This document shows positions 60,816 to 63,138 of a stretch of DNA of 64,000 bases, piece after piece. The number at the start of each line of letters is the position of its first letter. Position 1 is the stretch's first letter. The notes under the pieces are model-generated. The model was not told where the DNA came from, did not search any database, and saw only the letters and a list, made by a program, of their open reading frames with translations. The stretch lies in the sequence record PV682554.1; one strand, given 5' to 3'. The translations under genes were made by a program, and so were the position numbers. Origin of the DNA: Escherichia phage 92CQ.

Positions 60816-61073
60816 TTAGGAATGCATAAAATCTTCTTCAGGGCAGGTTGAGAGATAAGAGATGCACGTTGGGACAACAACAACATTATCTTTAAGGTTT
60901 GCAACCAAGCCTTTTGTAATCCCAGCCACTGCCCCGTTAATATCTGCTTGACGGATACCAAAACCTTGTTGTGCAGATAGATAACAAAATCCCTCACCTT
61001 TCTGTTGATTATTATTGAAGTAATAAACGTAGTGCATCATAAAATGGTCTTTAACGATTTGTTCTGTGGTCAT
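60816..61073 (-). CDS. hypothetical protein (85 aa)
   Basis: Track ORF; GAGAAT...ATG context; adjacent to Sir2-like gene. Confidence 0.5.
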   Translation of the reverse strand: MTTEQIVKDHFMMHYVYYFNNNQQKGEGFCYLSAQQGFGIRQADINGAVAGITKGLVANLKDNVVVVPTCISYLSTCPEEDFMHS

Positions 61074-61089
61074 AATATTCTCCTATAAG

Positions 61090-61110
61090 AAAAGGGGCTT
61101 TCGCCCCCTT
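61090..61110 (-). terminator. terminator after Sir2-like gene (GGGGGCGAAAGCCCC plus TTTTCTT on minus strand)
   Basis: GC hairpin with T-run in minus orientation. Confidence 0.5.
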
Positions 61111-61117
61111 GGTTAAG

Positions 61118-61930
61118 TTACTTAGTCAAATGATCTTCTATCATTTTTATGAAAGCAGGATTGCTAAAAGCATCTGCTGCCTTTTCTCTATAAACAAAGA
61201 CTCCTCTGTCTTCGTAAAGAAGAGTTTCTTCGTAATTAATTCCTGGGTTAACAACGATCATTTTTGTACCCATATTAAGTGCAGGGAATAATTCCCAATT
61301 AAAATTGATAACTTGGTTTGAACATCCTACTACTACAACCAAATCTTGCATGGTCAAAGTATCAAACAAGTGAGCCATATCTGCATACAAAGGTGCAGCC
61401 TCACCAAAAAATACAACATTAGGCTTCACCCAGTTATAATCATCTATGTTTATACTGCTGTAACCAATATCTACCAGTGTCTTGTAATCTCCAGGATGCA
61501 TACGATAAACTATTTCAGGAAGATATCCGTGCACGTGAATAACAGAATCCCTGTCTACACCTGCTCGCTCTAGTAGATCATCGACGTTTGTTGTCAAGTT
61601 TACTACTTGGTTAGGATATTCCTTAAACCACTTTGCTATTTGAATATGTGCAGCATTAGGTTGTACATCTTTAAGCTCAACACGTCTTTTGTTATAAAAT
61701 TCGTGTGTTTTGGCATACAAATCCATACCGTTCTCGTCTACACCACCAACCACGGGAAGATCTGGAGATGTTCTAACACGATAACCTGCTTGGAAAGCTC
61801 CAATATCGCAGACCTCTTCTAAATCATATTCTTCCCACAAGGCACGACCACTATCTGTGTCTGTTCGGAATGTTCGAATCCCACTGTCTGCACTTAAACC
61901 AGCGCCACTGACAAAAATTACTCTTCGCAT
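61118..61930 (-). CDS. Sir2-family (sirtuin/CobB-like) NAD-dependent enzyme lacking zinc-ribbon cysteines (270 aa)
   Basis: Motifs FVSGAGLSADSGIRTFR, QPNAAHIQIAKW, TTNVDDLLERAG...VIHVHG, NVVFFGE, VVVGCS align with CobB; no CxxC...CxxC module. Confidence 0.85.
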   Translation of the reverse strand: MRRVIFVSGAGLSADSGIRTFRTDTDSGRALWEEYDLEEVCDIGAFQAGYRVRTSPDLPVVGGVDENGMDLYAKTHEFYNKRRVELKDVQPNAAHIQIAKWFKEYPNQVVNLTTNVDDLLERAGVDRDSVIHVHGYLPEIVYRMHPGDYKTLVDIGYSSINIDDYNWVKPNVVFFGEAAPLYADMAHLFDTLTMQDLVVVVGCSNQVINFNWELFPALNMGTKMIVVNPGINYEETLLYEDRGVFVYREKAADAFSNPAFIKMIEDHLTK

Positions 61931-62487
61931 TCAATATCCTCTTCGTAATCATCATCCCAAGAAGATGCATCGTAACGCTCTTCCTCTTCGAAATCCCAAT
62001 TAATTTCTACTCCAAAATCTAAAAACAATTTAACAATGTTTTCTGTAGAATAGTATTTATCATAAGCGTTAGCTAGTTCCCAATACTTGTCACTCAATTT
62101 TTTATAAGTAGGATCATTATAGTCATAATCTACTTTATAACCATAGTCATACATCTCTTGTTCAGCTTTAAGCATAGCTTCTGGTGTAAGAAGATTAGGG
62201 AACGGACGATTTCTTTCTTTTAACTTAGAAGAAATCCAGTTTGCAACATTCGCCACTTCACCATCTCGATTATCACCTAAACAACTTGCATAATCTCCAT
62301 CTTCGTAAGTGCCTAAATCCCCACTGACTTCATGTACAATAGATGAATACGATCCACACGTTTCACAATCTGAAAAAGTGTCTACTGTTGTAATATCAAT
62401 AGATAAAACTGGTAAAGCCATAGCTTCTTTCACACAAGCCTCCTCATATAATAACATATCATCAAAACCCATATATCCTCCAGACAA
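61918..62487 (-). CDS. hypothetical highly acidic protein (189 aa)
   Basis: Track ORF; D/E/Y-rich (DYDYNDP, EEEERYDASSWDDDYEEDIECEE). Confidence 0.5.
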   Translation of the reverse strand: MSGGYMGFDDMLLYEEACVKEAMALPVLSIDITTVDTFSDCETCGSYSSIVHEVSGDLGTYEDGDYASCLGDNRDGEVANVANWISSKLKERNRPFPNLLTPEAMLKAEQEMYDYGYKVDYDYNDPTYKKLSDKYWELANAYDKYYSTENIVKLFLDFGVEINWDFEEEERYDASSWDDDYEEDIECEE

Positions 62488-62491
62488 ATAA

Positions 62492-62515
62492 AGCCCCTGC
62501 TTGGGGCTTTTGTTA
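62492..62515 (-). terminator. GC hairpin (AGCCCC-TGCTT-GGGGCT) with flanking T-runs
   Basis: Intergenic between 62527 gene end and 62487 gene start. Confidence 0.45.
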
Positions 62516-62526
62516 AGTTTTACGGA

Positions 62527-63138
62527 TTATACCAGACTTTTAAGGTACTTGTCAAGGGCTTCTTGATCACCTTGACAAACATAGCAACGGAAGTCTTGAG
62601 CAGAAGGTTCTTTGTCCTCGTCCCAATCCCAGTAGACAGTACCTTTATAGCGTGAGCCTGGGAACTCAAAGTATGCTACATGAGTAATATGGTGTGGGCC
62701 ACCCCAAAACTCTGTAAAAGTAAATTGAGGATACGCTGCTTTAACTGTATTTTCAAACCAAGTTTTACGATCTAATGCTTCGTTTATAAAATAAGCATGG
62801 CGTTCCATTTCATCCCAATCTTTCCAAACGCATTTTTCATCCAGAGAGAAAACAAAATTTTCACTGTTAAACTCGTCTGTATCTGATTCCAAAATATCAT
62901 AATCATGTGCACTAGGTATCCACCATCCAGCTTCTAATAGTGCTTTTGCAGGTACAAAACCTTTTTCAGCGTATTGATCAAATTCTTTTACTCTACGTAC
63001 AGTGCAGTATTCATCTTCACCACCAATGTCCAATAGACAAGCGCCTCTGCGTCTTGCTGCAAGACCATGTGTATCAAAAACTACAACGCTACCTTCACCA
63101 TCTTCACGATCTACTTGATATGCAACTTTTTGAGTCAT
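62527..63138 (-). CDS. hypothetical protein (203 aa)
   Basis: Track ORF in operon with methyltransferase. Confidence 0.5.
   Translation of the reverse strand: MTQKVAYQVDREDGEGSVVVFDTHGLAARRRGACLLDIGGEDEYCTVRRVKEFDQYAEKGFVPAKALLEAGWWIPSAHDYDILESDTDEFNSENFVFSLDEKCVWKDWDEMERHAYFINEALDRKTWFENTVKAAYPQFTFTEFWGGPHHITHVAYFEFPGSRYKGTVYWDWDEDKEPSAQDFRCYVCQGDQEALDKYLKSLV

Follow-up and report, generated by a model that had tools for sequence, protein, structure and literature searches.

Why the genome of a lytic phage should carry a gene for a Sir2-family enzyme is the question raised by one end of the 64,000-nucleotide stretch of Escherichia phage 92CQ DNA analysed here (the window). The Sir2 protein CobB of the host restricts T4 and lambda (PMC4271551), so the benefit that a CobB-like activity would bring to a phage is not obvious. 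The window belongs to a phi92-like phage (Justusliebigvirus), with over 50 deposited genomes matching its DNA at 97-99% identity. The gene is already annotated as Sir2 in phi92 (gp038), EC_OE_11, EmilieFrey and dozens of near-identical genomes, and a 2016 paper (PMC5107563) already described phage Sir2/CobB proteins that have lost the zinc ligands. Both the gene and its zinc-less state are already known, and the window brings no new gene or family; what it adds is a clearer view of the local transcription unit and of the lineage-specific acidic partner. Searches of the accessible literature turned up no experimental study of a phage sirtuin, of phi92 Sir2 or of a zinc-free sirtuin, and no assay of any family member. 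The locus comprises the following features.

60816-61073, minus strand: 85-aa gene (PHROG 15991), the final gene of the minus-strand block
61092-61110, minus strand: terminator-like hairpin just past the Sir2 stop codon (hairpin scan)
61118-61930, minus strand: Sir2-family gene, 270 aa, phi92 gp038 / T5.102 type (ORF, Pfam, PHROG, AF2, Foldseek)
61918-62472, minus strand: acidic protein gene, 184 aa from ATG, PHROG 9509 (ORF, PHROG, RBS GGAGG)
62490-62510, no strand assigned: GC-rich hairpin with A/T runs on its flanks, between the promoter and the acidic gene (hairpin scan)
62526-62555, minus strand: consensus sigma-70 promoter, TTGACA-18-TATAAT plus extended TG (promoter scan)
62527-63138, minus strand: 203-aa gene, PHROG 8514 (ORF list, PHROG profile)
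63140-63262, minus strand: gene for a 40-aa Trp-rich hydrophobic peptide (ORF list, composition)
63262-64000, minus strand: Dcm-like C5-cytosine methyltransferase gene, 3' two-thirds, cut by the window end (Pfam PF00145)

All six ORFs of the block lie on the minus strand, an orientation that agrees with the GC-skew switch near 60 kb, and their coordinates are those given by the first-pass annotation, with the exception of the acidic gene start. The neighbouring C5-methyltransferase that it had named matches Pfam PF00145 at 2.9e-20 over profile positions 83-323 of 324; the full-length gene of EmilieFrey encodes 329 aa. The 40-aa peptide, likewise described correctly as Trp-rich, has six Trp and a hydrophobic core; its gene is annotated as hypothetical in EmilieFrey, while nepoznato has no annotated gene at that position. 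A Phapecoctavirus counterpart of the 203-aa gene occupies the equal position (66-67% identity), and the 85-aa gene is also found 3' of Sir2 in Phapecoctavirus (46-48% identity). The only nearby gene of a type found in RNA-repair neighbourhoods, that of a calcineurin-like phosphoesterase, is located 4.5 kb upstream. A YbiA/NADAR-type gene lies in the window at 36263-36811.

The translation of the Sir2 gene contains GAGLSADSGIRTFR, QPNAAH, TNVDDLLERAG, HVHG and VVFFGE, so that the complete set of sirtuin core motifs claimed previously is present, and the match to the Pfam SIR2 profile (PF02146), at 80.3 bits (E 2.2e-22; cut-off 24), is far past chance. Residues G9-A-G11, F21, R22, Y79, R82, N115, D117, H134, F175 and E177 are invariant across 61 clade relatives. 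These include the catalytic Asn115, Asp117 and His134, and thus the mutated His or Asn that had been named as a refutation was not found. In the HMMER alignment to CobB, whose residue numbering was cross-checked with mutant names in PDB titles, H134 corresponds to H147 and Y79/R82 to Y92/R95. The class III acyl pocket, Tyr79-x-x-Arg82, is invariant in the clade; more widely, the Y-x-x-R motif is present in 38 of the 49 representatives without a zinc site and in 68 of the 92 that have one. Residues of the CobB acyl-lysine tunnel (V172, F175 and the FGE motif) are also invariant in the clade. Thr114 takes the place of the canonical Gln in the TQNID motif of the NAD pocket, and the peptide-binding loop reads SNQVINFNW, compared with GTSGHVYP in CobB. 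The NAD+-binding and catalytic set is complete, and the phage enzyme looks catalytically intact.

The earlier description of the protein as lacking a zinc ribbon holds for the metal ligands but not for the fold. The protein has two cysteines only, C41 and C203, and residues 134-170, the stretch that holds the CxxC...CxxC site in relatives, contain no cysteine; at least three cysteines occur in the equivalent small-domain segment of 92 of 150 representatives. The segment of ~35 residues is nevertheless retained, and forms the customary three-stranded sheet in the AF2 model (pLDDT 94-96) in which the metal-ligand positions are now approximately Y142, H145, S159/I160 and I162. According to the model, the small zinc-ribbon module thus keeps its fold although all four cysteine ligands are substituted.

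The AF2 model of the whole protein (pLDDT 90.9) has its Rossmann and small domains superposing on solved sirtuins. Foldseek returned 274 PDB chains at E<=0.001, the best being CobB (1s5p; E 1.7e-17, TM 0.72/0.85), and all 50 of the matches listed are sirtuins. The nearest folds among those listed are CobB, Sir2Af1 and SIRT5, and the same 50 include no defence sirtuin. The nearest solved sequences are CobB 1s5p (2e-18), followed by Sir2Af and SIRT5; by top sequence and fold matches the protein is nearest to the class III enzymes (CobB/SIRT5/Sir2Af1). It shares with E. coli CobB (1S5P, 6RXJ) the GAGxSxxSGIxTFR loop, Y-x-x-R, N-x-D, the catalytic His, FGE and the two-domain architecture, but differs at ~26% identity in lacking the zinc ligands, in the Gln to Thr substitution and in its peptide-binding loop, as well as in being phage-encoded where host CobB restricts phages (PMC4271551). 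Human and zebrafish SIRT5 and Archaeoglobus Sir2Af1 likewise have the class III fold (TM 0.63-0.70) together with the acidic-acyl Tyr/Arg pair; their identity is lower (18-24%), and they differ in having Cys4 zinc sites and cellular metabolic roles. HMM classification, recommended in the first-pass annotation, assigned the protein to Pfam SIR2 and PHROG 2162. A CobB orthologue was considered and rejected, as all NCBIfam CobB/deacylase models scored far under their curated cut-offs (best NF001753, 106 bits against 243; prot_deacyl_CobB, 86 against 320).

PHROG 2162, the T5.102 / rV5 / KVP40-CobB family, to which the phiSt2 Sir2/CobB also belongs, was matched end to end at E 3.4e-105, with residues 1-269 covering positions 10-270 of the 277-position profile. 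Sir2 homologues occur in 983 phage records, and the hosts of these phages include E. coli, Salmonella, Klebsiella and Vibrio. Identity reaches 96-99.6% with the listed copies of Justusliebigvirus and close relatives and 48-62% with T5-like, rV5-like and Mydo-type copies (T5 52%, rV5 49%, Mydo 57%). Members have in common the absence of the zinc cysteines and the replacement of the TQNID Gln by Thr or Ala. The Stephanstirmvirinae copies differ from the others by an insert of ~20 residues (Y51-Y72) after the cofactor loop and by their context, an upstream acidic protein and methyltransferase block without RNA ligase. The phage-wide family is best explained as descending from class III (CobB/SIRT5-like) sirtuins.

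We tentatively propose, at somewhat short of an even chance, that the Sir2 protein of phi92-like phages is an early-expressed NAD-dependent lysine deacylase. Consuming NAD+, it would deacylate lysines in proteins of the host or the phage at an early stage of infection, with a probable preference for negatively charged groups of the succinyl or malonyl type, as suggested by the invariant Tyr-x-x-Arg pocket of CobB and SIRT5. CobB itself is a SIRT5-like enzyme, both deacetylase and desuccinylase (PMC8556138). The nicotinamide released could be recycled by NAMPT-type salvage genes that the phage encodes elsewhere in its genome; NAD salvage genes are close to Sir2 in Mydo and in an Erwinia jumbo phage, and in another part of the genome in the phi92 type. 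Counting against deacylation are the NCBIfam scores under cut-off, the Gln to Thr replacement, the altered peptide-binding loop, the restriction of T4 and lambda by host CobB and the location of Sir2 among RNA-repair genes in rV5, Mydo and jumbo phages.

This last context is the basis on which RNA repair was predicted for exactly this viral sirtuin clade (Iyer et al. 2022, PMC9503650). The enzyme would transfer ADP-ribose from NAD+ onto an RNA 2'-phosphate by Tpt1/KptA-like chemistry, and so mend the ends left on tRNA or mRNA by anticodon nucleases of the host or by other metal-independent nucleases; its partners in this would be the RNA ligase, polynucleotide kinase and phosphoesterase of the phage. 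In rV5, Sir2 directly follows RNA ligase 1 and a cREC-like protein and sits beside PNK and phosphoesterase genes; it is flanked by an RNA ligase and a DNA ligase in Mydo, and adjoins 2H and Nudix-cREC proteins in the Erwinia jumbo phage. The protein of the window belongs with the rV5/Mydo clade, given its full-length identities to those two copies and its Cys-less, Thr114-bearing signature, while phosphoesterase, RNA ligase and PNK are all encoded by the phi92-type genome. In addition, the Tyr/Arg pocket could conceivably hold a phosphate as readily as a carboxylate. The genomic linkage, however, is not maintained: the RNA ligase/PNK cluster is ~30 kb from Sir2 in phi92-type phages (EmilieFrey), and a tblastn search of the window and the adjacent 9 kb, in which 24 genes neighbouring Sir2 in rV5, Mydo and T5 served as queries, recovered only Sir2. 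The neighbours in T5 are nrdD and genes of unknown function, and the invariant acyl-lysine tunnel is of the CobB type. The likeness to Tpt1/KptA is confined to NAD+-dependent ADP-ribosyl transfer, a functional analogy drawn by Iyer et al.; the fold is unrelated to Sir2, and no sirtuin is known to have this activity. RNA repair is judged unlikely. We know of no sirtuin demonstrated to act on RNA.

Sirtuin chemistry permits ADP-ribosyl transfer more generally (PMC9503650, PMC8556138), and the protein might instead be a mono-ADP-ribosyltransferase acting on host proteins or nucleic acid in early host reprogramming, functionally like T4 Alt/Mod or the macrodomain-linked SirTM sirtuins. The YbiA/NADAR-type gene of the window, a macrodomain gene in the related EmilieFrey and the early expression suggested by the consensus promoter are in line with such a role. 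SirTM operons, by contrast, have a macrodomain partner, and Pfam and PHROG profiles revealed no macro domain in the Sir2 neighbours; the EmilieFrey macro gene is itself missing from the window. Moreover, the closest relatives are efficient deacylases whose acyl pocket is conserved here, and ADP-ribosylation is usually weak in CobB-like sirtuins (PMC8556138). Taking both sides together, this role is quite improbable, and deacylation remains the reading we favour.

Early expression, which the proposed deacylase shares with the transferase just described, is predicted from the organisation of the transcription unit. The promoter at 62555-62526, which falls within the 203-aa gene at its 3' end, is the sole 12/12 sigma-70 match in the scan, and phAPEC8 has an equivalent at the matching place (11/12). 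Between promoter and acidic gene, the hairpin at 62490-62510 either terminates transcription arriving from upstream or forms a stem-loop at the 5' end of the new transcript; its phAPEC8 counterpart is at 4970-4994 (phAPEC8 sequence L007), and that of the hairpin following Sir2 at 6297-6314. The first-pass annotation had placed the whole block in a single operon below the methyltransferase. This does not stand, since the internal promoter and hairpin set the acidic protein and Sir2 genes apart from the 203-aa gene as a predicted two-gene unit, a layout conserved in phAPEC8. Because the promoter is of the consensus host type, the pair is probably expressed early.

The acidic ORF extends over 61918-62487 from a TTG codon; the ATG at 62472, which is preceded by the RBS GGAGG and gives 184 aa, is the most likely start. 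The last 13 nucleotides of the gene overlap the Sir2 start codon. The strongly acidic, D/E/Y-rich composition reported at first sight is borne out (pI 4.05, 46 D+E, 17 Tyr), and the protein displays an invariant CxxCG...AxC motif (C36, C39, G40, C64) and an acidic tail of the EECQDD type. A BFVD search with its confident AF2 model (pLDDT 87) gave only uncharacterised phage homologues and no informative match, leaving DNA mimicry or any other function without support. Paralogy with bas61_0198, from the BASEL pair labelled "putative aminoacyl-tRNA synthetase", was rejected for want of similarity (E 0.26); the label stems from a PheRS_B1 match at E 0.023. The acidic protein is found in 136 phage records, Sir2 in 983. 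The loci of T5, rV5 and Mydo have no copy, in Serratia phage BF the two genes are not neighbours, and the majority of zinc-less phage sirtuins occur without the acidic protein. An obligate zinc-supplying partner was rejected on these grounds, and its rarity and its absence or displacement at several loci make zinc supply unlikely as a general mechanism. We infer that the acidic protein is a lineage-specific accessory and not a general partner.

Two further readings draw on the acidic protein. The first is that the phage sirtuin acts as an NAD+ glycohydrolase by which the NAD+ pool of the host is depleted or reshaped, for example to shut off the host or to exclude superinfecting phages, and that the acidic protein inhibits or regulates it. 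It mirrors the defence Sir2 effectors, with which the first-pass annotation had framed the gene. A zinc site is missing in many defence-associated Sir2 NADases. Those of ThsA, DSR1/2, SIR2-HerA and pAgo-associated SIR2 have the same Rossmann core with Asn/His, many bacterial Sir2 domains devoid of the zinc module are NADases (PMC9503650), the KVP40 copy was first described as NAD-hydrolysing, according to PMC5107563, and Sir2 is tightly coupled to the acidic protein gene. The phage protein differs from the defence enzymes in being a single domain in a lytic phage genome, with no sensor or partner domains. In a PADLOC scan of the six proteins the only match of Sir2 was to PDC-S65 at 13.7 bits (E 0.0067 over 37 residues), which is noise, and a defence-type Sir2 was rejected; this score, together with the nearest sequences and structures, leaves the defence framing unsupported. 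The nearest folds are deacylases, a free NADase alongside the NAD+ salvage genes of the same phages would be counter-productive, and most family members (T5-like, rV5-like) have no acidic protein. NAD+ depletion is thus highly improbable.

The second, distinctly unlikely as a whole, is that the zinc-less phage sirtuin is not a deacylase but, in line with the prediction of Iyer et al., removes RNA 2'-phosphates or ADP-ribosylates RNA or DNA ends, and that in phi92 and phAPEC8 the translationally coupled acidic CxxC protein is its regulatory or targeting subunit. If true, it would be the first sirtuin shown to act on RNA and also the first from a phage to have its own dedicated partner.

Sir2 genes are present in about a thousand sequenced phages, classic T5 included, and a CobB relative made by the phage is puzzling, since host CobB restricts phages. 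An answer as to whether these enzymes serve deacylation, RNA repair or ADP-ribose transfer would shed light on the use of NAD+ by large lytic phages, now a central question in phage-defence biology.

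The region 60700-64000 displays 97-99% full-length DNA identity to EC_OE_11, Nernie, phi92, W22, PHB05 and EmilieFrey in a nucleotide search that returned 53 records covering most of the query, and the phage is therefore assigned by sequence to the phi92-like myoviruses (Justusliebigvirus, Stephanstirmvirinae). MG065639.1 and MG065689.1, named Campylobacter phages A150 and A110a, match the present E. coli phi92-type phage at ~97% identity throughout the query, which suggests a mislabelled host or contamination. The minus-strand genes described in the first-pass annotation were reproduced by the ORF list, and the GC skew goes negative at ~60 kb. 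The genes considered here are:

60816-61073, minus strand, 85-residue product
61118-61930, minus strand, Sir2 protein (270 residues)
61918-62472, minus strand, acidic protein
62527-63138, minus strand, 203-residue product
63140-63262, minus strand, 40-residue Trp-rich peptide
63262-64000, minus strand, 3' part of a C5-methyltransferase

All sirtuin motifs quoted in the first-pass annotation occur in the 270-residue product and the SIR2 gene is real, matching Pfam SIR2 at 80 bits (cut-off 24) and PHROG 2162 end to end (3.4e-105). It is gene 038 in phi92, and matching records name it "Sir2 (NAD-dependent deacetylase)", "sirtuin family protein" or "cobB". A homologue 60% identical, in Pectobacterium phage DU_PP_V, is misannotated as "tail assembly protein". 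The protein contains two cysteines, with none from His134 to Pro170. The protein was aligned with the 150 best representatives found in a library of 1.8 billion proteins: 92 of these present at least three cysteines in the zinc segment (pattern CxxC...IGY...CxxC) and 49 present none or one. Cysteine loss accompanies replacement of the Gln of TQNID, this position being Thr in 34 of the 49 zinc-less and Gln in 77 of the 92 zinc-bearing representatives. Every phage copy examined (phi92-type, phAPEC8, nepoznato, T5, rV5, Mydo and an Erwinia jumbo phage) is Cys-less. In the AlphaFold model (61-sequence alignment, mean pLDDT 90.9), residues 135-172 fold into the usual sheet of three strands (pLDDT 94-96). 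The earlier description of an enzyme without a zinc ribbon thus holds for the ligands, which are absent, but not for the segment, which is retained in the model and is therefore better termed a zinc-ribbon fold without zinc ligands. An insert of ~20 residues, YRVRTSPDLPVVGGVDENGMDLY (residues 51-72, about 61715-61780), follows the cofactor-binding loop; it is limited to Stephanstirmvirinae Sir2 proteins, and its modelling confidence is fair (block means 89-90).

The closest solved proteins by sequence are E. coli CobB (2e-18; activities summarised in PMC8556138), then Sir2Af2, Sir2Tm, Sir2Af1 and SIRT5, while by fold CobB (TM 0.72/0.85) precedes Sir2Af1 and SIRT5. NCBIfam CobB and deacylase models also match, with scores far under their cut-offs; the protein is a divergent relative and not an orthologue. 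The comparison with defence NADases drawn at first pass finds no footing in these neighbours: PADLOC gave only a 13.7-bit match, and defence sirtuins were absent from the 50 fold matches listed. The protein is unrelated to the defence NADases, and it is very improbable that it acts as a free NADase. Among 61 clade members (mean column identity 58%), G9-A-G11, S13, S16, F21, R22, Y79, R82, R83, N115, D117, H134, F174, F175 and E177 are invariant; mutation of the catalytic His or Asn, which would have argued against an enzyme, is thus not seen at H134 or N115. In the HMMER alignment Y79/R82 correspond to CobB Y92/R95 and H134 to CobB H147, the CobB numbering offset having been checked against the engineered mutants I131C, V187Y and Y92A in PDB titles. 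The Tyr-x-x-Arg pocket lets CobB and SIRT5 accept succinyl- and malonyl-lysine. In the phage protein the catalytic apparatus of sirtuins is thus intact, the Tyr/Arg pocket is conserved and the affinity is to class III. An ADP-ribosyltransferase built on this apparatus is improbable. The preferred reading, which we hold tentatively, is an NAD+-dependent deacylase that would act on lysines of host or phage proteins and favour acidic acyl groups, the nicotinamide set free being recycled via phage NAMPT.

The only perfect sigma-70 promoter in the scan (TTGACA-18-TATAAT with upstream TG) lies at 62555-62526, in the last codons of the 203-residue gene, and is followed by a GC hairpin (62510-62490), GGAGG and the acidic gene's ATG at 62472; another hairpin (61110-61092) lies directly past the Sir2 stop. 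The single operon originally proposed is therefore split by this internal promoter and the hairpin downstream of it. phAPEC8 represents another genus (identities about 69% for Sir2 and 35% for the acidic protein), and its order is the same: 11/12 promoter, hairpin, acidic gene, overlapping Sir2, hairpin, small gene and bidirectional terminator. In both phages the acidic gene ends in codons that run into the start of Sir2. A GAA-to-TAA change in EmilieFrey (window 61918-61945, L001 7219-7246) stops the acidic gene eight codons early, leaving a tail eight residues shorter that lacks the overlap and the tail cysteine. In nepoznato, a gene for a 246-residue product (L009 3477-4217) with an HNH-endonuclease-like motif, IDHDDGNKLNN, recognised by eye and not profile-tested, lies exactly between acidic gene and Sir2, and this insertion between the pair indicates that their adjacency is ancestral in the subfamily. 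About twenty promoter-like sites on the plus strand at 41000-58100, with a perfect TTGACA box (10-11/12), front small ORFs, and the consensus promoter of the pair thus fits the early, host-polymerase class. It is probably an early promoter, and we infer that the acidic gene and Sir2 form an early two-gene unit. Early genes are densely packed in the 41000-58100 segment, which converges on the Sir2 block. In both the window (62490-62555, minus strand) and phAPEC8 (L007 4926-4994), the promoter is followed by a GC hairpin with a T-run, no more than ~10 nt from where transcription is expected to start, and two phage genera thus share the arrangement. It is unusual for a promoter to stand ahead of a terminator-like hairpin, and the layout is reminiscent of the promoter-early stem-loop (PeSL) cassettes known from T4-type phages.

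The acidic protein belongs to PHROG 9509. C36-x-x-C39-G40, G54, G59 and A62-x-C64 are invariant in 20 homologues, which also have an acidic tail in common, ending EECQDD in the Stephanstirmvirinae copies. In a confident AlphaFold model (pLDDT 87) the CxxC sits at a beta-hairpin turn, the body is helical and the tail is disordered. The sole concrete new feature is a probable metal site; the designation of the protein as a DNA mimic is a guess. Members of the family turn up in 136 phage records, compared with 983 for Sir2; the T5, rV5 and Mydo loci lack the gene, and in Serratia phage BF it is distant from Sir2. Given these counts and absences, the protein is at most a lineage-specific accessory. 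BASEL phage records misannotate it as "putative aminoacyl-tRNA synthetase" on the basis of PheRS_B1 similarity (E 0.023). In Erwinia phage pEa_SNUABM_12, a 71-residue protein with six cysteines (CxxC...CxxC; L010 4738-4953) lies directly upstream of a Cys-less Sir2, with a 2H phosphoesterase before and a Nudix-cREC fusion after, recalling the CxxC-bearing protein upstream of the window Sir2.

On the basis of neighbouring genes, Iyer et al. 2022 (PMC9503650) predicted a KptA-like RNA-repair role for the clade that holds most viral sirtuins, and the published neighbourhoods are real. In rV5, RNA ligase 1 and a small protein bearing a cREC-like signature precede the gene, and PNK and phosphoesterase are beside it; the Mydo copy is placed between RNA and DNA ligases, with NAMPT and PRPP synthetase 5 kb away; the copy of the Erwinia jumbo phage is flanked by a 2H protein and a Nudix-cREC fusion, and NMNAT and NAMPT are 1-4 kb away. 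The T5 neighbours are nrdD and unknown genes. These neighbourhoods identify RNA-end repair and NAD+ salvage as the recurrent themes of the family. The linkage is loose, and absent in the window: tblastn with 24 neighbours from rV5, Mydo and T5 gave no match in the 64 kb or the next 9 kb. In EmilieFrey about 30-37 kb separate Sir2 from a phosphoesterase/RNA ligase/PNK cluster and from a PRPP-synthetase/NAMPT pair, and the sole such gene near Sir2, which has the same orientation and lies 4.5 kb upstream, encodes a calcineurin-like phosphoesterase. This gene (L001 11716-12459 in EmilieFrey; Pfam 4.9e-13), 4.5 kb past the window end and upstream of the methyltransferase, shares its minus-strand run with a resolvase-type recombinase. 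The window also encodes, at 36263-36811 (plus strand), a protein 99% identical to an EmilieFrey YbiA-like (NADAR-type) protein, related to NAD/ADP-ribose; the EmilieFrey macrodomain, phosphoribosyltransferase and HAD genes have no counterpart within the window. The chemistry of a KptA/Tpt1-like enzyme is attractive, in that the role of nucleophile could pass from the acyl oxygen to a phosphate oxygen and a His-activated 2''-OH attack could yield a cyclic phosphate, as in Tpt1, but this reading rests solely on neighbourhoods not present in the window and is unlikely here. What probability the deacylase and its rivals leave falls to an inactive protein or an otherwise unexplained role.

Sir2 homologues were detected by tblastn in 983 phage records. 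They occur in Justusliebigvirus and Phapecoctavirus, in T5-like and Epseptimavirus-type siphoviruses (52-62% identity), in rV5-like and Mydo-type myoviruses (48-57%), in large Vibrio phages (about 38-40%) and in several jumbo phages (29-37%). The gene, its family and the zinc-less state were all previously recorded. Skliros et al. 2016 (PMC5107563) described the missing zinc ligands in Sir2/CobB of Vibrio phages phiSt2/phiGrn1 and KVP40, listed T5 and others among the carriers and proposed that the phage enzyme deacetylates host acetyl-CoA synthetase, while Iyer et al. placed most viral sirtuins in "a distinct clade". Host CobB restricts T4 and lambda (PMC4271551). The literature searched yielded no biochemical study of any phage member of the family; what interest remains lies in the uncharacterised biochemistry of an enzyme that is very common in phages.
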